DNA of 64,000 nucleotides. Origin: Botryllus schlosseri (taxonomy: Eukaryota). This document shows, piece after piece, positions 1-23,972 of the stretch. Numbering within the stretch: position 1 is the first letter of the stretch; each line of letters opens with the position of its first letter. The DNA lies in assembly GCA_051294905.1 (NCBI GenBank), contig CM119371.1:33420001-33484000 (forward strand), written 5' to 3'. The translations under genes were made by a program, and so were the position numbers. The notes beneath the pieces are model-generated. The model did not search any database. It saw nothing but the letters and a program-made list of their open reading frames with translations, and was not told where the DNA came from.

Positions 1-2304
1 GGTCGCAGATTCTCATGAGCAAGTCATATTTTTGCGTGTCTCGCTTATTGGATATAGTATGCAACAACAGTGACCCTGGATATATGTAAAAACCATCGCC
101 GAATTTTTTGCAATAAATTCAAAAAATACTACATACATATCAACAGATAGTTCTGGCAACGTGTCGACCTATCATCATATACTCTTTGCGGCCAATACTT
201 TAATAACCCTTGAAGGGCTGAGAATTTGCAATGGAGTAACTTGCAAATGTGAGTCTGCAATGTTGGTACTAATCAATGAGCACTTACATTGCTGTGCAAG
301 TTATTCGTCTCAGGTACATTGACAGTAATATTTACAACAATTTCATGGGGTTGGCAGCAGTGGCGTAGCAGCAGGTGCTGTCGCCCATGGCTTTTCTTGA
401 AAATTCCGCCGCATAAGCACACCGCAGCAAATTTCGACATAGTTTCCTGTCCGAGCACTCTTTTCGATAAAAATAATTACAAATAATATGCCGCGTATCA
501 GAAGTTCGGAACACATATAGTATTCGCCTGGTTTCCCGGCACATGTGCAACACGTCCCATTTCATGTTTCCCCATGAAATAATCGATTTCTTTCATGTGA
601 AACACTAACATGAATCCCCCTTTTTTTAAATCAATTATTCTCTCGTATTAAGTGCACGCCTGCTTATTCAGCATATTTCTAGTGACGCGTTTTAGGTTTT
701 GTCCAACTGAATACCTCGTGCAGTCCAATCCCTGAAAGTTCAACACAACTATTTTGTGAACACAGAAGCGATCATCCCGCGATATTTTCAATCTCCCAAT
801 TGCACTAATTTCACCGGTATTGGTCTTGTACACAGCACGACATCGGGATATGGAGAATGTAGCAATTTCAGTCTTCAGGTCCGCCGTATTCATGCTGATA
901 ACAATCTTCCGGCCTAGCGTCTTTGTCGTATTTGACTTGCTAGGATGAACAAACTTTCTGTTCATCATTTTGATCCCCTCGTTCATGAGAACTTTTGCGT
1001 TCGATTCAGTCGCCATGTGACACAACATGCCGTCACCTCCGTACACCCAGTAGCGGGGAATCGATCCTTTCGTATGTCCGTGTGTCCCGGCCAAACCGTA
1101 GTTCGTGACTACAGCCCTATCGCAACTTATCATGACGTCTTTTATTTCGGTCATTTCAACAATTGATTTCAGTTTGCCTTGTACAATCGCATGTATGTTT
1201 TCCCATTGGTGGTATCCATTTGTCGAGTCTTGGCACTCTGCGTGCCGGTAATGGTACATCAATGTTCGTTGCACCCCTTCTTGTTGATATTCACTCAAAA
1301 TATGGGTTACTTCTTCCTTTTTCGGATTAGCAGCACGGGGATCGTCATCTCCTACTGCCATTCCTATCCAATAGGATCGGGACAATCCATCTGACGCGAA
1401 TACTTGCATCGTGCTGAGATGAATCACTTCCTTTATTTTAAACCTAACTCGTAAGAGAAGTAAGTTACCTTCGGCCGTCTTTGTGCTGAGAGAAATGTAG
1501 GCCTCCATAGCTATTGTATTTTTTCTATCAGCCTGGCCATGTTTTTTTATGTGCTGCTGGTACTTCTCCGTTATTGGTTTCACCGCGAATGACTCCATAT
1601 TTGCTGACCACATGGTTACAGATTCTTGTAAATACTTGGTATGGCTTTCCCCTTTCACATTAGAGGGGCCAGAGACAAATGGCTTAAGTGATGGGTCTTT
1701 TAGTTCGCTGTCGTACTTGTACTTCATAGATTGGGGCGCGCTAAGATGACATCGCAGATCTTCCAGCTCAGTCACAAAAGGTTTGTAGACCTCTGGCCAT
1801 ACGTTGTCGGCAATAATGATATTTTCTGGCGTAGCTGAATCAAGGGGCTTATATAGCCATTTTGCTAGCTCTACTGATTGTGCGCACAGGAGCTCAACTT
1901 CAGTTTTTACCTCAGGACTGGTTCCCTCTTGTAAGACGTACGTGATTACCGGACCGTTTACCTTTCTGTTTGGCTTATGCGGTAATCGGGGTTCTGGTGT
2001 TGGTGCGGAGAGGGCGAGGTTTTTTTTCGTCAGCGGGACTTCCCTACCTATTCGTGTTAACCTCTGATCTCGGCGCGTGCCCACGCCTAACGTCACGCCG
2101 CCGAAATTTTCATCTGACGGGGCCCCTTGTTCTGGAGAGACTTGCATCCTAAAATCCCCAGACTCCTCTTTAGTCACCTCTGGGCTATTATCCAGAAAGT
2201 GAGTAGTAGCTGCTTTGGAACTATTGTTGAGTGAAGTAGGCATGACGGCGGCTGTCGTGGGATCATTCCGCACTGATGCATTACCGTCGTCTGGACAAAC
2301 AGCT

Positions 2305-2706
2305 TTGCCTACATCCTCGGGGTCTGCTTGATTCGTTTGACCCCCATTCGCGTCAGCGGGACTTCCTCGCTCGGCACGAATTAGACTGGTGTCAGCAGGA
2401 CTTCCTTGCTCGGCACCTAAAGAGTCTCTTTGATTTCTTGTAACGCCAGCGGTGTTAACCGACCAAACGTTTGCGTCAGCGGCCCTTGCCAACTCGACGC
2501 TCATATTGCCTACATCATTGGAGCCACCTTGATTAGTGTGAACTCCATTTGCGTCAGCGGGACTTCCTCGCTCGGCGCGATTTTGGCAGGTGTCAGCAGG
2601 CCTTCCTTGCTCGGCACCCAAAGAGTCTCTCTTTTCTATTGTAACGTCAGCGGTGTTTACCGACCCAACGTTTGCGTCAGCAGCCCTTGCCACTTCGACG
2701 CCAGCG
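2305..2706 (-). repeat. In-frame 201-bp (67-aa) tandem duplication within the pro-X ORF
   Basis: ARAADANV.SVNTA.VT...RDSLGAEQG.PADT...RAERGSPADANG occurs twice, and the DNA motif gtcagcgggacttcctcgctcggc recurs at ~2352 and ~2553. Confidence 0.9.
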
Positions 2707-3300
2707 CCAGCGGCCCTTGCCGTCTCGACGCTCTGCTGTTCTGCAGCTTTCACCAACCCATCCTTGGTCACAGTTTTGCAAGGACTGTTTCCAATTCTGG
2801 TTCCGTCCTTTTTATCGCGTAAAGTCATACTATGTAGTGTTGCCAATGACAATTCTTCATTATCAGTAGACGGAGTTTTAAATTCAGTATCTATACTCGG
2901 TAATTGTTGTACTTTGTCAATCCATTTTAGCCCCACAATATTAAGAGGAACTCCCTTGCCAGTTGCAAATGGAACTTGCAGTCCGTCAAGAGGTACTATT
3001 ACTAGGGAGTCGACTCGGGACGAACCTCCTATTCCGCTCAATTTCATATCAAGTGGCTGTCATTCAGCCCAGCTTTTCGGATATTTATTTTTTACTACGC
3101 TCTTCATAATCAAATTGGGAATACTGCCAGTATCGGCTAGAAATTTAGTGTCTGTGTTTGTATCCACTAGGTATAGAAGTTGCCCACCGAATAATTCCGC
3201 GAAATCCGGTTGTAGGGGTTTGTCCGGTGAATCAAGGAATGTAAACAAAGGTAACGAGGCATTATGTACAGTTTTAACATGTTGGGGTAATATTGTGTCA

Positions 3301-3344
3301 GGGAGCTGATTCACCGGATCAATCAGCGCCCCCAACCGTTTTTT
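3301..3344 (-). promoter_or_regulatory. -1 programmed ribosomal frameshift signal (slippery heptamer A AAA AAC + downstream hairpin)
   Basis: Minus strand reads TCA AAA AAC GGT TGG GGG CGC TGA in the gag frame. A -1 shift enters the protease frame (R-L-G-A-L-I-D-P). A few nt downstream, GGGG-C-GCTGATT/GATCCGGTG/AATCAGC-TCCC can form a stem-loop. Confidence 0.85.
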
Positions 3345-6076
3345 GAGACGCGTAAACCTTGTTCTAATTCCTCATCTGTCCAGTAAGAGGCGGCGTATTG
3401 ACGCGGCTCTTGTCTATATGAAGGCGCAATCCAGTTTACCTGGCTGTTATTTAGAATTGGATTCGCGGGTGGTCCCCTGGGACCCCATTGGCCCCTATCG
3501 TGCCAGTGGGTTCTATCTCTGTTTTTAGGTATACTATCATAATAGGCCTCACATAGATTCGTTCTTTCTGCCAACGGGGGAGAGCCATGGGATATGAGAT
3601 ACCGATCAAGGTCTGAAATCGTCAATAATCCATTGCTAGTAAGGAACGGACGCCAGTTGCGTTCAGCGGATTCCTTAATACGCTGCGGCACCGGTCGTAC
3701 ACGTTTACGGATTATCCATCCCAATTCGCTATCTCTAGTGAGTACCACATTGTTTAGCCAAAGGATAAACTTGGCAACGCAATTCCGGGATTGATGCCCG
3801 GGGGCCTTACAGTAATAACATACCGAAAGGGCCTGGCCCTGGGAGGGATTCAAATATAAACCTAATGGGGCAAAGATATTAGCATTGCCAAGGAAATAGT
3901 ACCTCTCACCTTGGCTTTCCGCGATGTGGCGAGCCTCCTGACTGTTCGACGGAGTAATTTGCGTATTATCTGGTCCCACTCCAGAATCTTGTGTTCCTTC
4001 TGTTCGTGGGCTTCTTTGGCTTGAAGATCCTGGTTGTTGACCGGATTGTGCTGACCCTGAAATATGTACAGTCTGGATATCGGGTTCAGCAGAGGCGCCT
4101 TGTCTAGTAGTTTGCGCTCGTCTGCCTGGCCCGATACCACTCGATACGTTAGTAGGACGCCGGTTTAATCTTGCGTATCGAACAGGATTTCGGCGTAATT
4201 GTGTGACCTGTGCTGTATTCACAAGAGGCCGTGAAGGGACCACTCTGGGAGGTTGAGGTGGCGTTGCCTCGAATTCGGGCGGAGGATGGGAAAAAGATAA
4301 GGTGGGCTCCGGAAGTACTCCCAGTTGTCCATTACCGTTAGGGTGAGTGGGATAGCTATGTATCACAGGATCAGCGGGATGTACATTATAGATATGTACA
4401 GGCAGCAAGGGCGACTTGTTCGTCTGAGTTCTTCGGGTTCTCCGAGTCGTCGGGCTCGATTCCTGTTCATCTTGGAATTCCGAGTTCCAGAACAGTTGGA
4501 GTTCTTCCGCGACTTCCCGCCAGGTGTTTTCTTCCCACCCCCGTATAATCAACCTGAGTGCTTCCGGCAGCCGCTGTCTCAAATTGCGGAAAAGTCGCAG
4601 TCCGTCCGGGTTGTCCAAAATTAGGTCATCCATATCTATCTCCAGTTGTTTCAGAGCACTGTTAAGTAGAGGTAGGGGTTCGTCTTCCCAATGATACTTT
4701 CTTCGGAAGTTGTTGACAATTCTCTCATTATTCACAATTCCTTGTGGGTTGGAAAGTGACAGCGACCTCATAACCGATTCCCAGCTGGCGTTTCCCGAGT
4801 TTGTGTTGAAGAAGTTTCCAAGTTGATCAGCTTGTTTGTAACGCCCAGCATTCTCTAATTTCTTCTGCATTGCATTCATCAATATTATATCAGCGTCAGT
4901 ATTACCTTCACCGTGGTGAATTCGTCTCATCGTGTTCTCCATCCATTTAAGGAGAGGCATATCGCCCGGATCCAACATCAACTGTATCATTTCCTTTTCG
5001 GACTGAAATCTAGCAGGTATAGTTAGCGCTGGGTTTACCATTACCTCCATCGGTCGCGAGCGCGGCTGAATTGGGCGGTCATCATATTCCATTTGTTGTA
5101 CAAGTCTCTGCAGTCGGGATGTCGTCGCCCCTTCAGAATCAGAATCTTCTGGTTGAGCCTCCGAGTCTCCTTCGTCATACTCCTCCCCTTCTCCACGGAA
5201 AATGACGTGTTTAGCGTTGCTCGGCGATTTTCTTGCCCGACTACTTCGTGTCCCAACATCACCCAACTTGTCAATGTCCCGCCGCTGACCCTTCGCATCT
5301 CGAGGTCTCGACACCAGTTTCTGGAATGAGGAGAGATGTTCACTGTCCAATTCAGAGTCTGTTTCGCGTTCCATTCTCATCGGTCCTCCTGCCGCCACTC
5401 CCGTAGGTGTCCAATACGCCATGGGCGTGTTAGCACCACCTTTGGTCTTCATCGCAGGATGCATGCTCCCTTTTGTTCTAAAATTCGGAGCCATCAGTGA
5501 ACGGGCAACCGGGGTCGGACGAGGTGGATCATCAGTCTTCACGTCTGGGTGCGTATGGTAGACCGCCGTTACTGTATGACAATCTAACCCCTTTTTCACG
5601 GCCAAGGTGGGCATAGGCTGAGTCTTCCTGACCGTCTGGATGGCTGGTGGATCGTAGGCCGGTGGAGGTGCTGTGGGCATGACAGCCAGGGCGTGAGAAG
5701 GATGTGGTTTCTCTCCTACCGCTTGCGTATGGGCGTTACCCAACTTGAATTCTGTCTGCAAAATTTCGTTTAATACGTCTGTGGAAACCTTTCCAGTAAT
5801 TTTTGAAGTGGCGTCACAAACGGCCTTCAGGTCAGCTTGAGCCCGCCGGACGTCTTTTCTTGCTTTTTCCAGCTCCTTCACTGCCTCAGGCAGGGTCGTT
5901 TTGACCTCCTTTAGGACTCTTGTCTGGTCGGCCACATCTTTAGCAAGTTGCCTCTCTTGGTCTTGCACATCTTCGTGACGCTTTTGGGTATATTTAAGCA
6001 GTCGGATTCCCTGCTTTAGCTCCGCCGATGCCTCCGTTGGTTTCTTCTTTTTAAATAGTTTCAAGATTCTTCGCAT
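3323..6076 (-). CDS. gag: Gag-like polyprotein, 917 aa
   Basis: Intact ATG ORF. It has a basic N-terminus (MRRILKLFKKKK), a coiled-coil-like region at about aa 15-95, PTAPPPAY at aa 134-141, a helical capsid-like segment (...LRQRLPEALRLII...TWREVAEEL) and a CX2CX4HX4C knuckle CYYCKAPGHQSRNC (3779-3820). It ends at a frameshift site followed by a protease. Confidence 0.88.
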   Translation of the reverse strand: MRRILKLFKKKKPTEASAELKQGIRLLKYTQKRHEDVQDQERQLAKDVADQTRVLKEVKTTLPEAVKELEKARKDVRRAQADLKAVCDATSKITGKVSTDVLNEILQTEFKLGNAHTQAVGEKPHPSHALAVMPTAPPPAYDPPAIQTVRKTQPMPTLAVKKGLDCHTVTAVYHTHPDVKTDDPPRPTPVARSLMAPNFRTKGSMHPAMKTKGGANTPMAYWTPTGVAAGGPMRMERETDSELDSEHLSSFQKLVSRPRDAKGQRRDIDKLGDVGTRSSRARKSPSNAKHVIFRGEGEEYDEGDSEAQPEDSDSEGATTSRLQRLVQQMEYDDRPIQPRSRPMEVMVNPALTIPARFQSEKEMIQLMLDPGDMPLLKWMENTMRRIHHGEGNTDADIILMNAMQKKLENAGRYKQADQLGNFFNTNSGNASWESVMRSLSLSNPQGIVNNERIVNNFRRKYHWEDEPLPLLNSALKQLEIDMDDLILDNPDGLRLFRNLRQRLPEALRLIIRGWEENTWREVAEELQLFWNSEFQDEQESSPTTRRTRRTQTNKSPLLPVHIYNVHPADPVIHSYPTHPNGNGQLGVLPEPTLSFSHPPPEFEATPPQPPRVVPSRPLVNTAQVTQLRRNPVRYARLNRRPTNVSSGIGPGRRAQTTRQGASAEPDIQTVHISGSAQSGQQPGSSSQRSPRTEGTQDSGVGPDNTQITPSNSQEARHIAESQGERYYFLGNANIFAPLGLYLNPSQGQALSVCYYCKAPGHQSRNCVAKFILWLNNVVLTRDSELGWIIRKRVRPVPQRIKESAERNWRPFLTSNGLLTISDLDRYLISHGSPPLAERTNLCEAYYDSIPKNRDRTHWHDRGQWGPRGPPANPILNNSQVNWIAPSYRQEPRQYAASYWTDEELEQGLRVSKNGWGR

Positions 6077-6097
6077 GGCAATAATAATAGATTCAAT

Positions 6098-6544
6098 TTA
6101 TAGACCCGTAGTAGAGTTTTCGAGGTCCCGCTTTACGCTGGAGATAGTCGGGTCGTCCAAGGTAGGCCGTATTGTTGTTCCGAGTGATGAGTTGTGGTCG
6201 TTAGTCTCGAACTCCGGAAGTTTAGAAAGCGAGTCTTTAGTAATGATAAATTGGCGTCCTGCAGATATGTTTTGCGAGCCAATAAGAGTTGGGAACGGTG
6301 TTGTAACTCCGTTGTTAGGTCTTCCGTTTCCAATCGGAACTGTAGTTGGAGAAAACCCCGGTACTAAATGTAAATATATTGATGATAACGTGACTAACAA
6401 TGAAATTACAGACGCAATCAGGGCCACGACCAATACTGTTTTAACGATGGTCGTCTTTGAACACATTGATAGGTCCACGTGCTGCACTGGAAGTAATAAT
6501 CCCAGCTTGGTGCCTCCAGTACGTTTATAGTGCAGCTCCAGCAA
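6098..6544 (-). CDS. Small putative single-pass membrane accessory protein upstream of gag
   Basis: Hydrophobic stretch VLVVALIASVISLLVTLSSIYL followed by a Thr/Ser/Pro-rich tail with N-x-S/T sequons (NIS, NSS, NST). Its stop lies 21 nt before the gag ATG. The true start is uncertain (track start is TTG; internal ATG at MCSK). Confidence 0.5.
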   Translation of the reverse strand: MLELHYKRTGGTKLGLLLPVQHVDLSMCSKTTIVKTVLVVALIASVISLLVTLSSIYLHLVPGFSPTTVPIGNGRPNNGVTTPFPTLIGSQNISAGRQFIITKDSLSKLPEFETNDHNSSLGTTIRPTLDDPTISSVKRDLENSTTGL

Positions 6545-6901
6545 CGCTTGTTACTGCGAGAGTCCACACTTGGTTCGATTTTACTTCACAGTGCTGGTTT
6601 TCCTTATCTGTGTTGATGTTGTGACCTTGTAGCATCCACAAATGGTGATTGAAGCAGTGGTAAGGGTAGCAGCAGCTGGATCCAATCAGGCAATGACCTC
6701 CAGGTCCAGAACTCTAAACTACTCTGGTATAACTAGTAAATTAAACCTTAATACAACCAAATACTCCAATAACAACCATGCAAAGAGGAATGAGGTTTCT
6801 ATGAGTAAAACCAGATAAAATTGGTAAACATGCTTCAATTATATTACAAGTTTTATCTAAACCTATTCATCATAATGCACGAATAATAAACATTCTCAAT
6901 A

Positions 6902-7011
6902 CTCCAAGGTTTGTTTACGCATATAATTCATGCGACGGCCTGTCCTGCCGAAAAGCAGCTCCAAGGTTGGTTTACACATATAATTCATGTGACGGCCTAT
7001 CCTGCCGAAAA
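6902..7011. repeat. 57-bp tandem repeat, 2 copies
   Basis: ctccaaggtt.gtttac.catataattcatg.gacggcct.tcctgccgaaaa at 6902 and 6959. Confidence 0.85.
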
Positions 7012-7906
7012 ATTCATTCATGAAATATTGTGTCATTACACAACACTCAATTACAATAGTATTTTGATCAAAATCTACTATATCTCTGGGTTCGATGGTA
7101 CTGGTGTTTTAAGCTTTTTATTCATTCGTATGTACCGTGTCTCACAGACCATAGATCTGATTTACCACGAATCCTAAACTTCTTTCCCGCTAGGGTGAAG
7201 GGTCCCGACACTAACATAAGGCGTGGTCGGTTTATAACGCCTTACTGTACGAGACGGTACAACAGAGATTATTATAAACACTCATTGTAACAGGTTTGAC
7301 TTTGTAGAGAATCTGTGACGTTATTGTAGGGAGGGATATTTATTTTAGTAACTTGTGACATTAACCAACGTGTCAAGGACAAGTATTTTCCTAATTTAAT
7401 GTCGTTTACACATACACCCTAGTTATCCCTACAGGGCCCAGCTATTTACATATATGGTAGTTAGTCACAAGTCTCACTTAGTCAAACCCTGCTATCGTCA
7501 TGCACTATTATTAATAGTTTACATCAATACGGTTAACACAAAACAAACAAATATATATTAATCAGGTACCACTCGATTAAACGGCGACCCAAATATGTGT
7601 GTCAACAACAATACACATACCAGTAGGCTACATTACGCAATGATTCAATACGTAGTAATATGACCTCACCCTCAGTCAACAACAAATGCAATTATGCAGC
7701 GACAACTTACTATTCACATAATAAATGTCCATTAACTCTTAACTATGTTCAGGGCATGAAAATGTTAGCGCCATTTAAAGCAACCTGATAGTAATTATCA
7801 AGAACATAGTAATTATAGTATTTGAACATAATAAAGCGAACTAGCTTCACTACACAACTTTGTTTCCAGTCCACTAGACAGAAATACGTTTATCTTGCCT
7901 GCGCCG

Positions 7907-8735
7907 TCAAGCTCCATACACTTTGATCTTTTGCGATATTTTCCCATTGCAGAATATGCAGTGCTCAGCATCGGACGAACATTCTTGACACAGACCGGGA
8001 TCAGGGTAATTTCACTCCTATTATTCTTGCATTGTTTGCAAAGTATGGTTTCTTGTATAACCATCAGATTCTCAGCAATTTCTTCATCATATGCAATTTC
8101 CAATATTGATGGCGTCCCCATTCTGTTTCTAGCATAAACAGAGTTGCCCAGTCTACTCTTACTGTTGCGCAGTTTGTGTATTTGAATCGACTGGCACTAT
8201 ATCGAGTAGTATCAAAGGGTCTTGTACGACATCGTTCACAGTGAAATGAATATTTGATCGTCTGCTGGTGGCTCTTTTCTGTGTGACTTCTGCTAAATCT
8301 TATGCTGTCCAACTGCATCTTCTTGGCATCTTCCTCTGACAATCTGGTTCGAGCGACGCGTATTTGCGTTCCTATTTCGGCGGCCGGTGAAGGTTTTTGT
8401 GCTCGCTTTTTAGGCGTAGTCCATGTTTACACCGCAGCTGAAACACTTCACTCTATCTTTGTATCCTGACCAATAAAATCTCGTGGCCGCCATATCAGTT
8501 GGCAAAACTGAAGCTTCTTTTGATATGGACGAAATGTCACCAATCTATAAAATTCAGCTCGGCGATTGCAAGGTGGAATATAGCTGCCGTTTTTTTCGGG
8601 AGAATCGCGATATCGTGGAGTGGTGATTCCATCTTCTTGTATAACTCGTTGTCCTCTCGGTACATTAGTGCTTGACGGAACAGGCTTTCGACAAAATCGT
8701 GTGGAATGAATTGATATGTCCTGTCATCGATTCAT
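7907..8735 (-). pseudogene. Intronless inhibitor-of-apoptosis (IAP)-like gene, BIR + C-terminal RING, disrupted by frameshifts and deletions
   Basis: Manual translation across frameshifts. 8558-8415 gives AEFYRLVTFRPY/KEASVLPTDMAATRFYWSGYKDRVKCFSCGVNMDY, the N-terminal two-thirds of a BIR. 8070-7907 gives NLMVIQETILCKQCKNNRSEITLIP/LCQECSSDAEHCIFCNGKISQKIKVYGA*, an IAP-type terminal RING whose CGH is deleted at the frameshift. Confidence 0.85.
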
Positions 8736-9281
8736 ACGATAGCTTAACTACACGGGTGTGTAGAATATCTTGATATCGTATTTAATCTGTCTTATAATTT
8801 CGAAAATGAGAATGACACTTGTACTTCATGACGCAATTTATGCGTACGTCTATAGCAAAAAAATTAACTCATTAAATTAACTCATTAAAATAACATTGTC
8901 CCAACTCTTGTACAGATATCGATATAACAAACGGTTGACACACCCGCTTCGTAAAACGCATGTGTCGACATCAGGGCGGACCTATGACTAACGTGGTTCT
9001 TGATCATCGACACATCTGTTTCGGAAAACAAATGTGTGGATGGGGCCAATTTATTTGCCATTTTCAAGTTCATATTATGTGTTCTAGGGTGTTTTCTAAC
9101 CTAATTAACATACTATTTTATTCCGATTATATATACATCACTATTACTACACATATAGGCTATCATATATATCTATTTATTCAGGTTATATATTATTTCT
9201 TCATTAAACATAGTTTAATTAAACCAGATAGGGATGCCAAATCATTGAGTGTACCCTAAGACTTTATTAGTCAGCCCTATC

Positions 9282-9443
9282 AATTTAGTTTTCAAGGCTT
9301 CTCTGAAAAATCTAGCATTTTCAGTCCTTTGCCTATTAATTTAATCTTCCAGGCTTCTCTGGATAATCGAGCATTTCCAGTCCTGTGCCTATTAATTTAG
9401 TCTTCCAGGCTTCTCTGGATAATCTAGCATTTCCAGTCCTGTG
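9282..9443. repeat. 56-bp tandem repeat, ~3 copies, in the retroelement leader
   Basis: aattta.tcttccaggcttctctggataatctagcatttccagtcctgtgcctatt-like units start at 9282, 9338 and 9394. Confidence 0.9.
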
Positions 9444-9748
9444 TTGTCACCCGTGGCAAAATCAGACCATTGTTTCCAATGGCGGAGCCTTAAATTAGAC
9501 TCATCGGCCAATGTCACATAGATACTCTGATACTCCTGATAACGTATGTGTCATCATCAGGAATCTCAGTGATCTCAGCGATTTCAACCCTTGATCGAGA
9601 GACATATATTCTTGTGGTACCCAGACTGAGTGCTCGATCTCGGATTCCTTGCAGCTTAATCGTGGACACATGGTATCACTACTAATATTTCATAATTGGT
9701 GTAAATTAATCATAAATTTACACACGAAAAGTTTTCAGATCACATGGT

Positions 9749-9761
9749 TCACGTCGGGGTC
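9749..9761 (-). promoter_or_regulatory. tRNA-Trp primer-binding site (partial, lacking the initial TGGT)
   Basis: Minus strand GACCCCGACGTGA matches 13 nt of the classical tRNA-Trp PBS TGGTGACCCCGACGTGAT. It is directly preceded by ...TTCA (a possible LTR end) and lies upstream of gag on the same strand. Confidence 0.65.
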
Positions 9762-10654
9762 TGAATGCGATTCCGAGCCAAAATCCAATCCAAGTCCGAC
9801 TCCAACTTCATATCTTATCTAAGTTATGTTATATAATATTCTGTTAACCTACAAGGGCATTTTATCATTATATATTCATTTTATATATTTGATGAAGTTT
9901 TTATTTGATTTTTAAATTCTTTTATCAATTCTTTTCGTGGGTGCTTACTGCTTATATATATACATACTGCAACACTTATATTTTATATACATTGTATTGC
10001 GACAATATATTTGTCCCTCCTTCCTCCCTATCGTGGTTGGAATGCAGCCTCTACTCGCGTAACCATGGGTGTCAAAAAGTGAGATTTTCTCACAATCTAC
10101 TTATATATACGTCATTGCTACATTACCAACACCATAGTGATTTTATGTACTATATACAATGAATTTGAAATCTTTTTCCAAAGCTGTTCGCTGGGTTAAC
10201 CGGAAACGCATCTACTTCTAGAGCTAAGGGAGGTGCCATGAGCTAGGGACAAACGTACGACACAAAATATACCTATGTATACATAATTACAACACACATT
10301 ACTTTGCGGTTGGATGCTGTCCAAAAGGTAAGAATTCAATTCGTATAGGTGATTCTTAAGATGTTCTACGGTTTTATTCAAAAAGGGTTACTTATCTCAT
10401 TGTTGTGAGCTATTGGGTCGCGCCATAGACGGTTCCGGTAGCCGACACCAGGCACTACCCCAAGCAGCGAACACCGTAATATCGGCTCTATGCCCAAGCT
10501 CAAGAAATATATCTATACTATAAAAGAAATGCTTCAACAAAACTTCATCATATCGAACAAGTTTCTATAGATAAATGAATAAATAAATAAATGGCGTATT
10601 TAAAATGATTACAATACCTTTTCAAAATAAACACACGGTGGCTCTCTTACAACA
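9762..10654 (-). repeat. Putative 5' LTR
   Basis: On the minus strand it begins TGTTGTAAG (10654) and ends ...TTCA next to the PBS, and it contains AATAAA motifs. There is no second copy in the window, so the boundaries are a guess. Confidence 0.3.
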
Positions 10655-12345
10655 TAGGTGGTCGTTGTTTGGAGTTATTAAGTCTTCACATCCGTTTACT
10701 TCTACTGGTTATTATTCATAGTGGGTCTAGAAAATAGTTTATAAATGCCACCATTTCAGTTCTTCTCTCTCTCTCTCTCACACACACACTCAATATTATC
10801 TTAGGGAAAGGTTTTCAACCAAAACGGTCACTATCTATTATTTGTGTATATCATGTCTTCAAAATTGACCTTACACTATTGAACTAAACTCAGTTAGATT
10901 TGGCCTTAATGCCTCGAACTCAGAAGGTCACCAGGGTTCGACAAAGTACTTTGCTAATATCAAAACTCGTGTTACTTGAAGACTCAGACCTTATTGCTCT
11001 AGTTTTTGGAGTTTGGGGCCATACTATTGAGTGATTTATGATCTACAATTGAAATGAACCGACTATCAACCATAACGTAACTAGAATACTCAGCAATTAG
11101 CAAAATTATCAAATCTGCAATCTTTCGTCAGTTCTGACATTTTTTAGCTTAAAAGCAAAGACGTGTGATTTACGACAATCAGTGTAACATCATATGCTCA
11201 TAATATTAGGTTTTTCCGCTGTCAAAGGCTCAGTAATCTGCATGGGATTATTGTGAGATCGCATCTTATCATAACAAATATCATGTATCGCCATTATTGT
11301 TGTCTTGTCTGCTGTGTAGTACAGACTGAGTTAAAAATGAAATACTCTCTCCCTCTCTCAAAAAACACAGAGCCTGAACAAACGTAGGCAAAAATGCCCT
11401 CTGCAAATAGGTAACTTCACCAGTAACACTGAATTTACTAAAAAATGCGATGAGGCTACCGTATTGACCTAATCTGCAAATTACTCTTATAATAGTGCAG
11501 AAAACTGACAAGGGAGTTGTCAACAGGCTACAGCAGCATGCTGTTCAGAAGGGTTATTAACTGTTGATGAGTGGGAGTTTATCAATACATTTTCTTTTTA
11601 AGCCTATAGAGGTCTTGTTACAGTTTAATCCTGATAGATACCACAGTATGGACGTCTATTCAGCTTGAGCTTACATCTATACTGGCATTCAGGCAAAGAA
11701 AATGGCTCTATATTTACCAATTAGGAGTGAGTTTCAACGCAGTCATGGTTGGTGATACCATTGGTGGCCAAAGTTCACCGAGTGTGTGATACCAGCATTG
11801 ATCACTGTTGCTGAGACGTTGCTTGGATTGGGCTGAATCCTTATGACGGTCTACTTGATTGACAAAAAAGAACTCAGGTAAATTTCAGCCACACAAGTGG
11901 CTTAACTATTTGGCATCATTCTGTGGTAGATGCCTCAAAACTTATAAATCTGTCTTGTATACTGGCCTGGACAATTCCAATTGATGTACCAATGATGTGG
12001 ATGCGTTAATACCACAAGGTCAGATAAAGATACATACTTTATCAAGATTTTACATGACTTAACAGGCAATTACTTAGTAGTGGCCACTCTTGAAATTGCG
12101 AGATGCATCATTAGACTAATGCAAAAATGACAGATAACGTGTCACAGTTTCAATCGACGAAAATTTATTCAAGAAATTACTGATGACTATTTTATGCAAT
12201 ACTTGTGCAATTTTTTACGAAAATGACGTAGTGCTATACCTAATCTCATGCCAAGACTATACTAAACTATCCAGAAAGACTACGAATTGTTCCGCTACGG
12301 AACGCCCTTGGGTGTTTCTTCCCCCATAAGATCTAGCATCTAAGT

Positions 12346-13264
12346 CAAGGGTCGGCAACCTACGGCCCGCGGGCCGGATCCGGCCCGCCAAGCGAAATCG
12401 TCCGGCCCGCGACGAAATAATTAGTTACCACAAGAATACGGCCCGCCGTTTCGTAATGAGTTCCAATCTGCAGTGCAGCACTGCTTCGAAAAATGTCAAA
12501 ATTTATAATGTTTTCTTCCACTTACGGATGATGACTCCGGAACATGTAATTCACGCACCTACGGGGCTCGTTCACTTTCCTATACTGGAGGAGAGTAAAC
12601 CTAGTTACAGCACTATACATTTGTAACTGTGATATACCAAATTTAATCAATGAATTTCCATCCGCTTTTCCGACATTCGTTCTGTACAAAATAAATTCTG
12701 ACTAACCAGTAAGCTACTCCGGCTAATGTGGGCGCCAATACCATTGCCAGAAAATTTCAAATGGGCCCATTTGAAATGCCATGCAATTGAATTGAATGAC
12801 AAATTTCATACAAAGAGCATATCGCTGATTGACTTTGACAACGAGTACGTTCTTGATATGGGTCTTCATCCCAGCTTGACCAACAATGCAAAAGAAATAG
12901 CATCGACTTTTGGTAGCACGTGCGCATGTGAACAATAGTTTTCAACGATGAAATTCACGAAGAGCAAGCTAAGATCACGTATCCCAACGCACATTCAGAA
13001 TATGGCCTGATTCTAGCTTCATCTGACTTGTTACCAGAAGTTGAAAACCTTTCACAAAGCAAGCTGCGCCCTTTGTCACATTTATGCTGCGTTGTTGAAG
13101 TGTTTTGCTCTTTTTGTGATTTGTATGATTGAGAATGCAGCATTGTAGGGTAATATACCGACGTGACCGTTAAATATAGTATTAGGAAAAATTCCGGTCC
13201 GGCCCGCCAAAATGTTGTGCACCGGAAATTTGGCCCGCGACTAGCAAAAGGTTGCCGACCCCTG
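12346..13264 (+). mobile_element. Internally deleted hAT (Charlie/SPIN-like) DNA transposon with a transposase C-terminal remnant
   Basis: TIRs caagggtcggcaacc / ggttgccgacccctg and a perfect 8-bp TSD ATCTAAGT (12338-12345, 13265-13272). The remnant FGSTCACEQ*FSTMKFTKSKLRSR matches the hAT C-terminal dimerisation region. Confidence 0.92.
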
Positions 13265-15189
13265 ATCTAAGTCATTGTAATTTTGGACAACCACAATCTT
13301 CTATGCTCTGTGACACCTTTAAATCAATCGGTGTCTATTAACCTTTAATTGGTTACCTAAAATAGGGCATGTAAATTTATCATTCAGGCGTTGGCAAGAC
13401 CGCAGTGCAGAACCACCCGTTTTGAAACTTGCCTTGACGGGAAGAAGTACCGAAGTACATAAATAGCTATTCTTATCGCGATACAAAATACTGCTTATCA
13501 TTTTTGAGAAATAGCTAGGTTGGCTAACCCCGTTACGGTGGTATTACTGGCTCACTGATCATTGCTTACTAATAAGATTAGTTTTGGTGCCTTGGAATAA
13601 AGCCACGCCGGTAACAAAATATTATTTAGTGAACCTGTAATTCTGCCATAACTAATAGTGTCGTTCATTGAATAGTAAACACATTTAGTATTGTCTATGA
13701 TTCAACATTCATAGGTATAACGACCCGCTGGACCCGTGTGAATTTTTCAAAATGAATTATTACTAGAACGGGAATTAAAATCAAATATCAATTAATATTA
13801 AAATAAAGTAAATTCAATCAATTATAGTTTCGCCATCGCGATGATTAATACACCTACAAGATGGTGCTTTTTCTTTAGACAGGTCAGTTCCCTAAATGTC
13901 ACACGGATATTCTAAATCTGGATCTGGAGCATGACTCGCGGTGGACATCTCTAGCCATCTTGATGTAAACATAACTCAGAACAGAGCAGCCGCCAGCATC
14001 ACGCATGAAGAAACTTGTACTCCATCAGTACCCCGCACTACACACCGACTTCAATGCTGCCAGTCAAATCACTACTTCGGCTAAAGGTTTGTTTTATCCT
14101 TCCCAAGCCACGTATAGGCAGTTCCAAACACGATATATAGAGCCCAGTGGTCATATTGTCAACACGGTACAATCAAAGTCAAGATTGTATTAATTCTGTA
14201 TCGCATTGCTGCATGCTGTATATAAGAATGAGTTCGTGTTTGCCCATATGTAGTTAGTGATGTAGTTAGTTGATCAACTCTTGTCTTAGTAATGATGCAA
14301 TTACTATTAACGATATGATCAAAGTAAAATTTCAAAGTAGTTAACTTATGGTTTACCAATGTAGAAGTAATTACAAATACATTTATTTTACAACATACAA
14401 CGCGAGCCATATACATACATTGATTAGCCTACAATATAGCCTCAGAAGAAAGTAATAAGCTAGTTTGCCAAGTTCACAAAGGTTTTTTCACCACAGAGGA
14501 CTATGGCCATAGATTCCAATGTTGAGTAGGACCGTGTGTGAACGATGAACATGCATTTGCTTTATGCCCACAATCTACTTGGTACAGATATCGCAAGCTG
14601 CCTTTTCAGCGATGGCGAATAGAATTTCAATTAGTCTTCATCCTTACCAACATAGGCATTTTCTAATGACTGAGATTAAGTAATCACTATCTTAGATTGG
14701 TATAATTAGTATTTGGAACAGATCTCTAACCCACTAAACTTATAAAGCAGTGTGAAATTCGACTTCGTTACGTACAACGACAGCTTAGAGAAACAATACC
14801 AGGTATCATATATGTACTAATCTGCTTGTCCAATTATTTGCTGACAATTGACACTATCTCTTACCTTCAGTGTTGCAAGCATTATTTATGCTCAATCCAA
14901 CCCCTCTAACAGAGCCCGCAGTCGAACAGTGTTAAATAAAAAGAAAACACAAACCAAATCACAGTATTTTCAGTCACGAATCATCAACGGGTCATGTTTT
15001 ATCATCATGGACTAGAAATGTGACGTAAAGCTGATCTTCCACGGCATGGTAGCTTTTAAAAGTGATGTGATAGTGTAGTTTGTTGAGATTTCAGTGTTTT
15101 CATAGTAGTTTTAGGTTGAACTTCAAGTTCTTATATCTAAAAAAGAGATGTGGCACTGTAATATATTGTCGAATACTTGAAATTCCAAA

Positions 15190-15262
15190 ATGCCGTGGCG
15201 GGCCGCACAAAATGCTCTCGCGGGCCGCATGCGGCCCGCGGGCCGCGTGTTTGAGACCTCTG
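15190..15262. mobile_element. hAT-type MITE end fragment
   Basis: gcgggccgcatgcggcccgcgggccgcgtgtttgagacctctg: ggcccg subterminal motifs and a hAT-like TIR ending in ctg. The partner end was not found. Confidence 0.6.
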
Positions 15263-15473
15263 GTTTAAATACTATTAATACGGTGTCCGAACGCAGAACA
15301 CTGATAACCTTGCTAATATATATGCTTGGCTTAAAAATTTCTATGCATTCAGTGCTACCTGCAATAACCCTAGTTATTGGGAAACACTTACAACTCTCAG
15401 ACCCCCGTAAACACTACCTGTCCAACGCATAGACAATATCGAACTTGCTGGATAAAGAAACTCCATTGAACCT

Positions 15474-15648
15474 GTTTGTTTTTTGGGGGGGGGGGGTATT
15501 CATGGTGTTTGTCGACTGCTATAGTCATTTACACCAGGCCGATATTCTTCATATTTTCCGTAACTGCCGACTTATAGCACGGCCCACCTCTAGGCTTTTG
15601 TAAGACACCGCTGACACGGATGAGGTGGCGAGGAGGAGCCTAGGTAAA
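15474..15648 (-). mobile_element. tRNA-derived SINE, 5'-truncated copy
   Basis: Matches the body and (CAAA)n tail of the SINE at 49562-63533. It shows the uninterrupted sequence cacggcccacctctaggcttttg. Confidence 0.85.
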
Positions 15649-21600: not shown

Positions 21601-23972
21601 TCGTCACCGCGAACGGAATATTCATCAATTATTTATAACAATCGTCAGTAACGAGCAAACTAGAAAACAAAAGATTATCGACACGCGATTATTGCTTGCG
21701 TGATTTCTGTGCTAATTTACCCCAATATTTTCAAGTCTAGCCGTTATTCTAGAATTTACACAAGTTGGTGAGCAATATTCGTAATGGCCGATAAATTCCA
21801 TCGGCTCATATTGCTCACACTCATAGTTATTCTTCCACTGCGGTCACTGCCGTCCCAAACACGTCAATGTCCCCTTCACCTCGGAATCAAAAGCGCACAA
21901 GCACAACACATGCGCGTCCAGCACGCCGCCCAAACATCACATGGTCGACCGAAAAGATCATCGCTCCATCAAGCATGCCGGACCTGACGTGTGGAATAGC
22001 ATCCCGCCGGCCATCCGACACCCGACGAGCATGCCCGCACCCAAGTCGAAACACAAGCAATCACCACTAAATAAACACCAGTCCAGGTGCCGGCAACCTT
22101 TCGTATGCAGCATGCCAAAATATCTAAAAATGTAAAATATTACCAACCCGCGTGCCAACCATTTTCATTTTCAATGTTTCAAGCAAGGAATCACACTGAC
22201 CACCTATCTGCAGAAGGTACCGGCATTGGTTACGTCAGATATTCTTACAGTATTGGTCGATGAAAGGTATAAATTTTGGTCCCTACCACACTAGACCTAT
22301 ACCGTCTAATGTACGTAATATGTGCAATTGTGCATCATTTAAATTTAGTCGCGTAATGGCCGATCTTCAGTGGTTTCCTTGATCGTTTCCAAGTCTACTG
22401 TGTTCGGTACCATAGCCAATAAGCGACAGGCCGATCAAAGATGTTATGAAGAGATGGTCTCATGATGAAAAATGTCTCAACCCCTGTACCAAGGAAGTCG
22501 GTTTGATGTAACTATTGGTCTGACACTAGATTTGTCTGCAAAGCTCCAAAGATTGCGGTATAGCGGTAAAGGTTGTCTTTGCTCCAGACATATTAGAATT
22601 GCTTACACGTATCAGGCGAAACCAAAATAATATATCCTTTCGTGAGACCAACCCAATTCAAAATTCGCATTTCGACACGGGACTCATTATCTGTGTGGAT
22701 CTCATATGAGACGTGCGGCTCAAGCTCCGCGTCGGTCATTTCGGCCAGGGACTTATAGAACTCTATATATCCCTGATTTCGGCGCCTGGACATATCATTG
22801 TCGAAAGTTTAGGCCAATATGCGGTGGTTATTATATTTAGATGCTCTATCGCCGTCAATCATTCGGCAACGCATACAGCACACGCAGCAGTCGCACTTTG
22901 CCCGAAACATGCGAACCCTAACGTGAAAATGGCTAGCGCAAAAATACTGGTCCATATAAAATATTCGCGGTCCCACAGGCTGCACAGTGTACCCTCCTAG
23001 ACTAAAGTATCAAAGCAGTTTCATACGATATTAGGTTGCCGTATATATTTTCGTGGGTTTCGCAATATCAAGTAATTATACGTCATGGTAAATCTCGCGA
23101 AGAGCAAACAATGTTATCTTTTCATTGCATCACATTTCCTCGGTGCATTGAAAGATAAAAATTGCTAATAAATGATGATTATATTGACCGCTGACCTCCT
23201 GCGAAATGAAATCATTGTGCCCCACATTCTCGCATCATTACGCACTAATATCACTCGCAAATATCTTGCGGAAAAGGCGGACTTATGCTTGCGATAACAA
23301 TGCACGCACACAAATATTATTATTATTGAAATCAGACTTAGTATGACGGTTATAAATTTGTTCGCCTTACCTTATATGATCTCTCCATTATCAAATGTGC
23401 GCGCAAACGATCGGTATAATTAATTTCACCGTTGTCTTCCATAATATGAGGCAGTTCAGTGTAATGTGAAGCCGCTGGAATTGTCCGGGTTTTTATCCAC
23501 ACAATCAGAAGTGTATCCTGTTGAAATCCCTGCACGCAAGTCGGCACTTACTTGAGCTAGTTCTTGTGAGGTTTTGGCTCGTTTCAGTTTTGGCTGATTG
23601 ACGCCCCATGTGAGAAGAGGTATTGCGCTTATGTCGTGATTGGACCAGACCTAACGAAGTCCCGGATATCCTTCTTCAGATAGCTTATTACCAATGCACC
23701 TTCTCTCCTATTCCGGGCTTTAAATTTATCTGTTCCGTATATAGTACAAATAATCTTGAGCCCCGGCCAAATTGCGGCCCACGTGAAACATAAATCAATA
23801 CATACTGCATCACATCACATCTCAAATCCCGTGTTCCCTACTGATAACGGCTTATCTCCAGGCGTTTAGTATACTTGACCCAGAAGTTCTATATTGCTTG
23901 AGAAAGAAGCCCATCTCAGCGTTTATAAGGCCAAAACAATAATGACAAGAAATGGATACGAATGTATTAGGC

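Follow-up and report, generated by a model that had tools for sequence, protein, structure and literature searches.

The 64,000-nucleotide stretch of Botryllus schlosseri DNA analysed here (the window) contains an insertion at 508-23881, on the minus strand and 23.4 kb long, which from its 5' to its 3' end carries a long stretch poor in reading frames, remnants of accessory genes, a small membrane protein ORF, an intact gag and a damaged pol (Table 1). The unit is collinear from end to end with two other copies of the same lineage (C15 and C2; 84-95%), and the interval originally predicted, 648-10654, corresponds to under half of it.

Table 1. Features of the insertion and its borders (window coordinates)
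Feature	Position	Strand	Remarks
TSD copy at the element's 3' end	500..507	.	AGAAGTTC on + strand; identical 8-mer at 23882-23889
3' terminal inverted repeat	508..531	-	element end ...CCAGGCGAATACTATATGTGTTCC; homology to other copies ends there
Pol remnant	648..3335	-	protease, spacer, RT remnant, Tpt1/KptA-like C-terminus
gag	3323..6076	-	intact 917-aa ORF; ORF list, Pfam, motif scan
-1 frameshift heptamer	3338..3344	-	A_AAA_AAC; gag frame, 17 nt before gag stop
Small single-pass membrane protein ORF	6098..6544	-	directly upstream of gag; ~122 aa from ATG at 6466
Spliced-leader-identical island	6739..6770	-	host SL exon (24 nt) + GTTTAATT
Decayed IAP gene	7910..8493	-	BIR piece 8431-8493, linker 8162-8419, RING pieces 7996-8109 and 7910-7990
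Cargo ORF remnant (ORF168 of 40-kb family)	9398..9671	-	tblastn, two pieces, E 2e-11
5' stretch, ~14 kb	9672..23857	-	no ORF of 110 aa or more
5' terminal inverted repeat	23858..23881	-	GGGTCAAGTATACTAAACGCCTGG; 5' end common to at least 10 other copies
TSD copy at the element's 5' end	23882..23889	.	AGAAGTTC on + strand

The predicted Gag protein contains the late-domain motifs PTAP and PPAY (aa 134-141; 5654-5677), a single CCHC knuckle (aa 753-766; 3779-3820) and a CA-like two-lobed helical domain at about 4457-5008. Its AF2 model (pLDDT 82-93 over residues 28-211) suggests a capsid-like fold, with retroviral and retrotransposon capsids occupying 12 of the 13 best rows in VIA-align at Z 5.5-6.7, values of 5-6.7 lying under the caution line of that program for helical folds; with Foldseek, the best match reached only an E value of 1.2. 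Within the lineage of the window copy, P(T/S)AP was present in 10/10 copies, PPAY in 9/10 and CCHC in 11/11, and comparison of the window gag with that of 10 family copies gave dN/dS values of 0.18-0.46 in all ten cases.

The pol gene lies in the -1 frame, and reading after a -1 slip yields the Pol N-terminus. The slippery heptamer is found in the gag frame in the 40-kb family as well as in the window, and a hairpin is predicted 3' of it (MFE -22 kcal/mol, z -1.8; 6 of 200 shuffled sequences were equally good). The Pol remnant comprises a protease with a DTGS motif (3060-3335), an in-frame TGA at 3060-3062, a spacer in which a 201-nt sequence is repeated in tandem (2305-2701) and an RT remnant devoid of YIDD, RNase H being missing. 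A blastp alignment showed that residues 562-677 and 746-984 of the 40-kb family's 1205-aa Pol have no counterpart here, and the deletion breakpoints are identical in the three copies compared (window, C9 and C2). For PR the dN/dS ratio was 0.09-0.15, whereas the RT remnant gave a value of about 1; such ratios show that Gag and the protease have remained under purifying selection in a non-autonomous family. The original prediction had recognised the Gag with late-domain motifs, the -1 frameshift and the protease, all of which were borne out, and the region that it had left as unknown (648-3047) is Pol, from which RNase H and the RT core have been deleted and whose C-terminus is Tpt1-like.

The small protein encoded ahead of gag has a hydrophobic segment at aa 2-38 and three N-glycosylation sequons. 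This ORF, already noticed in the original prediction, is always located just ahead of gag and co-occurs with it in three families. Its amino acid identity is 88-93% in family copies, falling to 75% for a compact relative of 14 kb and, over aa 3-65, to 55% for the 40-kb family. The IAP-like gene that had been proposed for the region further upstream exists as a decayed remnant that was detected by tblastn only: the query, an intact BIR+RING ORF (283 aa) from the 40-kb family, matched it in four pieces whose frame changes (summed E 6e-16), and Pfam recognised nothing in the fragments. The 24 nt of the spliced-leader island are the consensus “Chordata 1” spliced leader (Table 1 of PMC3795323), and RNA reads were found that bear these 24 nt at their 5' end and then run into unrelated sequence. 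In the 40-kb family, 28 nt of the island are 100% conserved between flanks that are not alignable. Such an island inside the element may be a trace of RNA, and it was counted in favour of the reading preferred below.

The 5' stretch holds the place that the transposase, env and second glycoprotein genes have in the compact relative, and tblastn with the proteins of the 40-kb and 14-kb relatives gave no match in it; nor did searches of the window copy with the relatives' proteins reveal a transposase gene. What had been taken as a leader of ~3.7 kb actually measures about 17 kb, is mostly non-coding and reaches the terminal inverted repeat (TIR). As its Pol is without RNase H and RT core, and as transposase and env are absent, the window copy is non-autonomous.

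Both TIRs start with GG and are imperfect, the 3' end matching the reverse complement of the 5' end at 17 of 24 positions, and they are flanked by a perfect 8-bp target site duplication (TSD). The empty site was recovered from contigs of the public DNA run X1, which join position 507 straight to the sequence after 23889, meaning that exactly 508-23889 is absent from this allele and that one TSD copy is left. In the 40-kb family, where the TIRs match at 15 of 21 positions and start with GG at both ends, all nine copies examined presented sharp common termini, unrelated flanks and direct duplications (8 bp in eight copies, 9 bp in one), and the ends of one copy were common to at least 18 others. 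In the lineage of the window copy, perfect 8-bp TSDs were found in three of four copies (window, C2 and C13), C15 having none. Copy lengths range from 14 to about 60 kb, and short copies of ~1.3 kb share one terminus region only, of one family. Merlin transposons are defined by TIRs starting with 5'-GG, TSDs of 8-9 bp and a DDE_Tnp_IS1595 domain (Feschotte 2004, summarised in PMC8101967), and all three hallmarks were found here. In its ends, its 8-bp TSD and the DDE gene that goes with them, the element corresponds to a Merlin/IS1595-type transposon. The window unit is a crippled 23-kb copy, and the family to which it belongs consists of giant, retrovirus-like mobile elements devoid of LTRs and integrase, with Merlin-type inverted ends, an 8-base target duplication and a DDE transposase. 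The original view of a decayed copy from a multi-copy family was supported.

The complete relatives, with sizes of 14, ~24 and ~40 kb, have all their genes on one strand. Their products are a zinc-finger-bearing DDE transposase, Env, a second, mucin-like glycoprotein, the small membrane protein, Gag and Pol, the latter ordered PR-RT-RNase H-Tpt1/KptA without integrase and reached after a -1 frameshift. The larger relatives have, in addition, a second DDE gene as well as genes for an IAP, an LRR protein and a ubiquitin E2. The latter three lie upstream of gag in that copy of the 40-kb family whose ends recur in at least 18 others, which supports the earlier suggestion of a retrovirus-like, enveloped-virus-style element with host-manipulating accessory genes before gag. 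DDE, env, gag and pol occur together in at least four diverged families, between which Gag identity goes down to about 60%, and the gene order of two families is circularly permuted relative to the termini. The transposases matched DDE_Tnp_IS1595 over the Pfam cut-off (E 7e-10 to 3e-17), with the D, D, E residues and a CxxC...C..C finger conserved in the three aligned proteins, and 28 of the best 31 DDE matches (at least 87% identity) were free of stops. In one family the DDE ORF begins within about 200 nt behind pol in 6/6 copies, in the same frame in 4/6, so that the transposase gene directly follows pol in the usual integrase position. Env has a signal peptide, an RRRRKR motif with a hydrophobic stretch behind it, a TM segment at the C-terminus, 11-15 sequons and 16 Cys, and 46 of 54 env matches lacked stops. 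Its neighbours in a protein atlas were class I fusion proteins (0.88-0.90); the fold was not obtained by modelling (pLDDT 34), and the putative class-I-fusion-like assignment therefore rests on sequence features and this language-model lead.

In the Pol of a 40-kb relative, Pfam recognised RVT_1, RT_RNaseH, RT_RNaseH_2 and PTS_2-RNA. An RT-RNase H tree of 60 rows placed the eight integrase-less sequences on one separate long branch (SH-aLRT 100), the next-best homologues being Ty3/gypsy polyproteins with 21-28% identity. The Tpt1-like domain scored 42.2 bits against PF01885 (cut-off 26) and matched PDB 7kw8 (E 2e-6). Tpt1/KptA enzymes have a catalytic Arg-His-Arg-Arg set. Here the RH, GH(S/T), YH.T and R..IHL motifs are retained, but the Arg of the IRAxQGHS motif, located before GHS, is replaced by Ala, Ser or Phe in 6/6 domain-bearing members.

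The structure of the element is thus well shown, and it is probably best read as an enveloped retrovirus-like element that integrates by means of a Merlin/IS1595-type DDE transposase, with a non-autonomous copy in the window. We infer a cycle of RNA and reverse transcription, in which an RNA/cDNA intermediate, particles and a transposase acting on these ends would take part. A long sense RNA would be translated to Gag and Gag-Pol, then packaged and reverse transcribed in Gag particles, which could bud via ESCRT bearing Env; the DDE transposase would insert the double-stranded DNA product through its inverted ends, generating the 8-bp duplication. The window copy, after losing RT, RNase H, transposase and env, would be mobilised in trans, and it would have retained gag and protease because each RNA requires its own particle proteins. 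The IAP, E2 and LRR proteins would dampen host apoptosis, ubiquitin or innate responses, and the Tpt1-like domain might, as a guess, process or ADP-ribosylate nucleic-acid ends. What speaks against this reading is the absence of LTRs or terminal redundancy, which leaves the regeneration of both complete ends by reverse transcription unaccounted for. Further points against it are the missing primer binding site, the RNA depth of about 0 over gag and pol, the low Z scores of the capsid matches, the low pLDDT of the Env model, the lost Arg of the Tpt1-like domain and the C15 copy without a TSD. The empty site fits either mode of movement, the retro cycle or DNA-only transposition by the transposase.

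The locus had originally been interpreted as a complex LTR element (Ty3/gypsy or ERV) with its 5' LTR at 9762-10654, a tRNA-Trp primer binding site (PBS) at the LTR edge, and RT, IN, env and the 3' LTR further left. Gag, the protease, the frameshift site and the Ty3/gypsy-type RT/RNase H domains of the relatives would suit such an element, as would a 13-mer present at 9749-9761 and rarer than chance (expectation 0.03). However, none of RT, IN, env and 3' LTR was found in 20 kb left of the window because the element ends at 508, where homology to other copies stops, running the other way to 23881. The segment 9762-10654 was rejected as an LTR, as it has no partner repeat and is collinear internal sequence in other copies. 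The 13-mer, the sole PBS candidate examined, is internal, at a distance of ~14 kb from the element's 5' end, does not have the TGG expected at a PBS start and is exact in only one of the three other copies covering the site, so no PBS was found. Direct repeats of at least 60 nt were absent from window positions 1-25000 (including 1-16000), except for the tandem inside pol; self-BLAST of three relatives revealed no long terminal direct repeat, and when the outermost 300-420 nt at either end of three elements were compared, no R-like repeat exceeded the level of shuffled sequences. By Pfam, the rve/integrase domain is absent from the window Pol and from the 712-aa RT-to-C-terminus part of the 1205-aa Pol, and no integrase domain is listed for the close relatives P0001-P0006 either; no tyrosine recombinase (DIRS) was found in the 21 ORFs of a 40-kb copy (Pfam) or in those of the 14-kb copy. 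The 8-bp TSD, moreover, borders inverted rather than direct terminal repeats. The original prediction had itself named the lack of a matching 3' LTR together with a non-conserved 13-mer as refuting it; both were observed, and the LTR-element interpretation is thereby refuted.

A stronger contender, even if an unlikely one, is a Merlin-superfamily transposon that moves as DNA only (by cut-and-paste or copy-out/paste-in), its retrovirus-derived genes being cargo that serves, for example, cell-to-cell or horizontal DNA transfer in particles, or that has no essential role. The ends, TSDs and empty site with its single TSD copy would all follow from simple cut-and-paste, with the transposase acting alone; the Merlin hallmarks are all there, no LTRs or terminal redundancy exist to rebuild the ends after reverse transcription, and the ~1.3-kb one-terminus copies resemble the MITEs of DNA transposons. 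In addition, gag-pol is nearly without RNA reads, the depth over gag and pol being about 0 at 90% likeness or more in two RNA runs with the same species label, of which 3-6% each was read. Nevertheless, the non-autonomous copies retain a selected gag and protease while dropping the transposase, the reverse of DNA-transposon derivatives, and RT, RNase H, frameshift site and env are intact in dozens of copies from several diverged families. The integrase-like position of the transposase in one family, and the fact that every gene is intronless and on one strand, also speak against this alternative. It is very improbable that the unit is a chance composite, that is, a retroelement nested in or beside a Merlin transposon, a segmental duplication or an assembly artefact. 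Nested insertions are frequent in large elements and copy lengths are variable, but the same end pair, with TSDs and unrelated flanking sequence, encloses the whole unit in 9/9 and 3/4 copies, the retro module lacks separate termini, pol and DDE adjoin, the association of DDE, env, gag and pol is repeated in families with saturated synonymous divergence, and the empty site lacks precisely the whole unit with one TSD copy.

For an enveloped retrovirus-like element inserted by a Merlin/IS1595-type transposase, no description of the combination of gene set and ends was found in the literature searched, and the family seems to be undescribed, as the original prediction had considered possible; the closest analogues are Teratorn, Burro and the Terminons. 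The likeness to Merlin elements, as these are characterised in PMC8101967, includes the DDE_Tnp_IS1595 catalytic domain and the zinc finger N-terminal to it, TIRs of ~21-24 nt starting with 5'-GG, TSDs of 8 bp (once 9 bp) and the imperfection of the TIRs, seen in some Merlin families. Unlike the small Merlin transposons of that account, with their one transposase gene, the elements described here enclose gag, env, PR-RT-RNase H-Tpt1 and host-like genes within 14-40 kb, and what their non-autonomous derivatives preserve is not just the ends but also gag and protease. Teratorn of medaka, presented in PMC10175614 as a piggyBac transposon fused with a herpesvirus, similarly carries a virus-like gene set inside cut-and-paste transposon ends with its own transposase, and is giant, multi-copy and mobile; there, a 180-kb DNA herpesvirus is joined to piggyBac, whereas here a 14-40-kb reverse-transcribing, Gag-based element is joined to Merlin.

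Burro/GYPSM1, giant gypsy-like LTR retrotransposons of planarians, share with this family the giant size, Gag, CCHC, PR-RT-RNase H and an env-like fusion protein, as well as apoptosis and ubiquitination domains (BIR, BCL2-like, MATH/TRAF and ubiquitin-like in Burro); as outlined in PMC6431247, they possess LTRs and an integrase and hold the extra domains inside one huge polyprotein. The present family, by contrast, lacks both LTRs and integrase, carries its additional genes as individual ORFs ahead of gag, and has ends and a TSD of the Merlin type. The Terminons of bdelloid rotifers are likewise retroelements, reaching 40 kb and carrying numerous accessory ORFs in one orientation as well as a 3' RT, but in the same source they are portrayed with a Penelope-like RT and telomere attachment, and without Gag-PR-RNase H, TIRs or a DDE transposase (PMC6431247).

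With Ty3/gypsy elements (Metaviridae) the family has in common RT and RNase H domains assigned by Pfam to the Ty3/gypsy type, and with LTR retroelements at large the Gag CA fold with CCHC, the Pol order PR-RT-RNase H and the gag-pol frameshift; unlike Ty3/gypsy, it has a separate long RT-RNase H branch, a C-terminal Tpt1 domain and no LTR, PBS or integrase. The order PR-RT-RNase H without integrase is reminiscent of Caulimoviridae. Pararetroviruses have an episomal circular DNA genome that need not integrate, and integration with a TSD speaks against membership of that group, while the domain order agrees with it.

The homology between the window copy and its closest relative in the same genome (on contig C9, 94-98% identity) begins at window position 505 and extends for more than 14 kb, with the 3' terminus of the element being read as ...GTGTTCC at 508 and GAACTTCT as its flank. 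GAACTTCTGG is unique in the window, lying at 23880-23889, and a matching 5' end of the element starts there. This second flank copy with its matching 5' end therefore defines a unit of 23,374 bp (508-23881), which is bounded by a perfect 8-bp duplication (AGAAGTTC) and has inverted termini of 24 nt, imperfect (17 of 24 positions match) and both starting with GG. Copies on contigs C15 and C2 are collinear with the entire unit at 84-95% identity, and a perfect 8-bp target-site duplication (TSD) was found in three of the four copies of this lineage examined, the C15 copy having none. In contigs of a public DNA run (X1), position 507 is joined straight to the 22 nt lying next to 23889, that is, to an empty site with a single copy of the 8-mer, and the window insertion is therefore polymorphic or hemizygous. 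X1 may come from the assembly's own sample, in which case the empty site would correspond to the other haplotype.

These ends do not agree with the original prediction of an LTR element with a 5' LTR at 9762-10654. No long direct repeat was detected in window positions 1-25000, and searches for LTR and R-like repeats in the window, in the relatives tested and at the element termini found nothing, with no terminal redundancy; 9762-10654 is internal sequence. The 13-mer proposed as PBS(Trp), at 9749-9761, was rejected, being exact in only one of the three other copies spanning the site, and the suggested extension to the left gave 20 kb devoid of RT, integrase and env. The sole content found in those 20 kb was a zinc-finger gene at about -16 kb. 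The genes that had been described did withstand the analysis. The observation is partly confirmed and its interpretation partly supported, the element being more unusual than proposed.

The nature of the element becomes clearer from its complete relatives. Gag matches at least 72 places in the genome, and the group sharing about 60% identity is part of elements roughly 40 kb long. In about 30 of these copies the 3' edge lies around 270 nt past the pol stop, and at least 18 have the 5' edge in common. All nine copies examined have sharp ends, unrelated flanks and a direct duplication (8 bp in eight, 9 bp in one), with intronless ORFs on one strand throughout. A compact relative of 14.0 kb (contig C13), with a Gag 83% identical to that of the window, encodes transposase, Env, second glycoprotein, small TM protein, Gag and a complete Pol, and nothing else; its ends are of the same type as those of the window copy and its TSD is AAATGTTT. 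Env matches are free of stops in 46 of 54 cases; an AlphaFold model of Env (pLDDT 34) was unusable.

Features of the window copy and gene order of the 40-kb family
Element	Feature	Position	Strand	Remarks
Window copy	Pol	down to 648	minus	begins with DTGS protease; in-frame TGA at 3060-3062
Window copy	heptamer A_AAA_AAC	3344-3338	minus	gag frame, 17 nt ahead of gag stop
Window copy	gag ORF	3323-6076	minus	intact, 917 aa
Window copy	small single-pass membrane protein ORF	6098-6544	minus	directly before gag
Window copy	decayed IAP	~7910-8493	minus	four tblastn pieces, changing frames, summed E 6e-16
40-kb family	DDE_Tnp_IS1595 transposase	order 1		N-terminal zinc finger
40-kb family	838-aa glycoprotein	order 2		signal peptide, RRRRKR then hydrophobic stretch, long predicted helices, C-terminal anchor
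40-kb family	1160-aa paralogue of the 838-aa glycoprotein	order 3		mucin-like Ser/Thr region
40-kb family	ORF-poor region	order 4		~10 kb
40-kb family	small paralogous ORFs, LRR protein, second DDE gene, IAP, ubiquitin E2	order 5		IAP: BIR+RING; E2: PF00179, E 1e-47
40-kb family	small TM protein, Gag, Pol	order 6

The ORF-poor middle of one 40-kb copy (L023, G000:C4:22825001-22835000) has a single ORF of at least 100 aa along about 10 kb and is matched by other copies piecewise or without parts; it may represent cargo that is variable or has decayed, or else nested repeats. The second IS1595-type DDE gene (L022:7056-8003; L072:3656-4672) is 40% identical and forms part of the cargo in the larger families; the compact relative has one DDE gene only.

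The transposase places the ends of these elements in a known context. According to the available text of PMC8101967, Merlin transposons are defined by terminal 5'-GG inverted repeats, TSDs of 8-9 bp and a DDE_Tnp_IS1595 domain, often with a zinc finger, and all of these hallmarks are present in the family described here. All three transposases aligned keep the catalytic D, D and E, and 28 of the 31 best DDE matches are free of stops.

As to the particle genes, the only domain recognised by Pfam in the window Gag is a CCHC zinc knuckle (aa 753-766), while the late-domain motifs PTAP and PPAY are adjacent at aa 134-141. An AlphaFold model of Gag aa 330-917 (19 sequences) contains a helical domain at model residues 28-211 with pLDDT 82-93. 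When compared by VIA-align with 48,161 PDB representatives, retroviral or retrotransposon capsids made up 12 of the 13 best rows and 27 of the 50 displayed, at moderate Z values (6.7 for the CA-like domain of MOAP1 and 6.3 over 178 residues for MLV CA; the other capsids were those of RSV, PEG10, foamy virus, Ty1, dArc, copia, PNMA2 and HIV). Foldseek returned nothing from the PDB at E 0.001 or better for Gag, the top match being the Arc CTD (E 1.2). Despite the moderate Z values, the enrichment of capsids among the structural matches makes Gag a reasonable call for the 917-aa ORF. A -1 slip at the heptamer leads to the N-terminus of Pol, and the same slippery site occurs in the family whose Gag is only 60% identical; the hairpin 3' of the heptamer is modest (-22 kcal/mol, z -1.8).

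The 1205-aa Pol of a relative comprises a protease (PR), a repeat-rich spacer, RT (YIDD), RNase H and a C-terminal Tpt1/KptA (RNA 2'-phosphotransferase) domain, with Pfam matches to PF00078, PF17917, PF17919 and PF01885 (42.2 bits, cut-off 26). The Tpt1-like domain also matches PDB 7kw8 (E 2e-6) and, in every member possessing it, lacks the Arg before GHS. Residues 562-677 and 746-984 of this protein are missing from the aligned window Pol, which has therefore lost the RT core together with the YIDD motif and the whole RNase H, with identical deletion breakpoints in the C9 and C2 copies. Accordingly, the unknown region first noticed after the protease is a gutted Pol. No integrase domain was present in any Pol looked at, either in Pfam scans or in the records of close relatives. 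In the PR-RT spacer of the window copy (2305-2701, minus strand) a 201-nt unit is present twice in tandem, the two copies being 85% alike and encoding a repeated acidic/Ala-rich peptide; in the 40-kb family a different repeat occupies the same place (L020+L021).

Upstream of gag, the small TM ORF is conserved at 88-93% amino acid identity in family copies and 75% in the compact relative, with a weak likeness in the 40-kb family. The predicted IAP gene proved to be a decayed remnant, detected by tblastn with the intact BIR+RING ORF of the 40-kb family as query, in whose fragments Pfam recognised no domain. Between these two lies an island (6739-6770, minus strand) whose first 24 nt are the spliced-leader (SL) exon consensus "Chordata 1", as given in Table 1 of PMC3795323, with GT next. 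The island is found 540-690 nt upstream of gag in the window and in further copies (L049:1157-1184, L020:5157-5184, L018:3975-4002, L012:883-910); the 40-kb family has 28 nt of it at 100% identity, although the flanks there are no longer alignable, and the compact copy lacks the island. Two RNA runs hold thousands of reads with the SL stretch continuing into unrelated sequence, and directly before it a tail that we take to be a template-switch oligo. Over window 400-12000, reads of the two runs of the species that were sampled give a depth of about zero on gag/pol and pile up on the 32-nt island alone, and a third run with another organism label gave no matching reads in the same interval. The island could be left over from reverse transcription across host SL RNA, or it could act as leader or splice donor of a TM-gag-pol message.

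The main rival explanation is that of a Merlin DNA transposon merely carrying retroviral genes, which accounts for the ends. Four observations (recurrence, adjacency, selection and the RT tree) say instead that the retro and transposase modules form one machine. DDE, env, gag and pol occur together in at least four families, between which synonymous sites are saturated. In one of these, the pol-DDE family, the DDE ORF starts within about 200 nt of the pol stop in all six copies, being in the same frame in four; directly behind pol, the transposase thus holds the place of the integrase, a position that the carrier explanation leaves unexplained. It also leaves unexplained the selection acting on Gag and PR in copies that have no transposase. 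DNA-transposon derivatives retain their ends and not capsid genes, which are retained by retroelement derivatives needing their own particle proteins. The non-autonomous family of the window has lost transposase, env, RT and RNase H and has retained Gag and protease, both of which evolve under purifying selection. Their dN/dS is 0.18-0.46 for Gag in ten of ten comparisons and 0.09-0.15 for PR, whereas the RT remnant gives about 1 and the Tpt1 part 0.54-0.97. The carrier explanation is for these reasons considered unlikely. In a quick IQ-TREE search with 60 RT-RNase H rows, the eight integrase-less sequences formed one long branch (SH-aLRT 100), apart from the 52 Ty3/gypsy-type rows.

In four of the six pol-DDE copies (L070, G000:C1:24299901-24300700, and L073-L077 being the stretches compared) the pol stop is a TAG with the transposase ORF continuing in the same frame, making a read-through Pol-transposase fusion possible; the other two have extra stops and a frame change in between. 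The 3' terminus of this family, located after the second glycoprotein, carries the motif ...GCACTAGTTCC, which is that found behind pol in the 40-kb family. Both families therefore have the same circular order of genes, with differently placed termini, pol|DDE versus glycoprotein|cargo (for the pol-DDE family, 3' end only).

Close relatives are few. Among 5.8 billion proteins Pol has only six (32-42% identity), four with a Tpt1 domain on record and none with an integrase; the proteins ranking next, at 21-28%, are ordinary Ty3/gypsy polyproteins. For Gag, 1.84 billion cluster representatives yielded 31 relatives at E 0.001 or better. Env has a single homologue in the 5.8-billion set, and a scan of viral contigs returned no relatives. 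A metagenome scan gave 18 loci, only three of them close (L050 and L052 at 47-49%, L051 at 34%) and all three too short to display ends or transposase. L051, a 13.9-kb contig with an RT 34% identical, carries gag and PR-RT-RNase H followed by a 1338-aa ORF with a signal peptide, and has neither integrase nor Tpt1; the integrase-less clade may consequently be wider than the Tpt1-bearing group.

Taken jointly, the data are tentatively read as a possible new order-level reverse-transcribing element or virus. This would be an enveloped Gag-based relative of retroviruses, of up to 40 kb, in a spliced-leader-using chordate host, with LTRs and integrase replaced by Merlin inverted ends and a DDE transposase, a Tpt1-like domain added to Pol, anti-apoptosis and ubiquitin genes, and an exact copy of the host SL exon before gag. 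What is shown directly is the anatomy, ends, TSDs, empty site, pattern of selection and linkage of the two modules. In the probable cycle inferred from these, sense RNA would be packaged by Gag and Gag-Pol and then reverse transcribed, particles would bud through the late domains bearing Env, and the transposase would insert the DNA product. Since the same circular gene order appears with shifted termini, the replicative form may be circular, as in pararetroviruses, and the transposase would then insert the circle or its linear product.

Retroelement classes are distinguished by integration through LTR and integrase, tyrosine recombinase, target-primed endonuclease or the Penelope-like mode. 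If the proposed reading is true, Gag-PR-RT-RNase H combined with a cut-and-paste DDE transposase and inverted ends is a further mode. The literature covered, with Repbase reports and subscription journals outside its scope, offered no retroelement with a Merlin/IS1595 transposase or a Tpt1 domain; a match for "Tpt1" concerned the unrelated tumour protein TPT1. The closest system in principle is Teratorn, which joins piggyBac and a herpesvirus (PMC10175614, available part); the present family would be its reverse-transcribing counterpart, with integration modules swapped again between viruses and transposons. In the accessible text of PMC6431247, Burro provides a precedent for apoptosis/ubiquitin cargo in a giant retrovirus-like element, differing from the present family in having LTRs and integrase, and Terminons are alike in size and layout, whereas their RT is Penelope-like. 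At 14-40 kb with env, late domains, IAP, E2 and LRR genes, these would also be among the largest reverse-transcribing genomes, and a natural retrovirus-like agent with apoptosis and ubiquitin regulators as separate genes. Genome annotation probably breaks such units up into "gypsy fragments", "Merlin" and host-like IAP/UBC gene models.

Small copies some 1.3 kb long, located at L071:2496-3812 (G000:C1:24306496-24307812) and in at least 25 further positions, consist of the last 1.3 kb alone of the pol-DDE family (second glycoprotein end and 3' terminus) and look like a MITE-like derivative family. At gathering score, Rfam recognised no family in window 1-24500, and its matches at 6600-6900 were at chance level only. 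The non-coding part of the window element includes tandem arrays at 9276-9443 (three 56-nt units, more numerous in the C9 copy) and 6902-7011 (two 53-nt units). Outside it, the inverted pair of ~390-nt repeats at 52403-52796 and 60178-60571 represents an unrelated dispersed repeat, which also flanks the C9 copy (L017).
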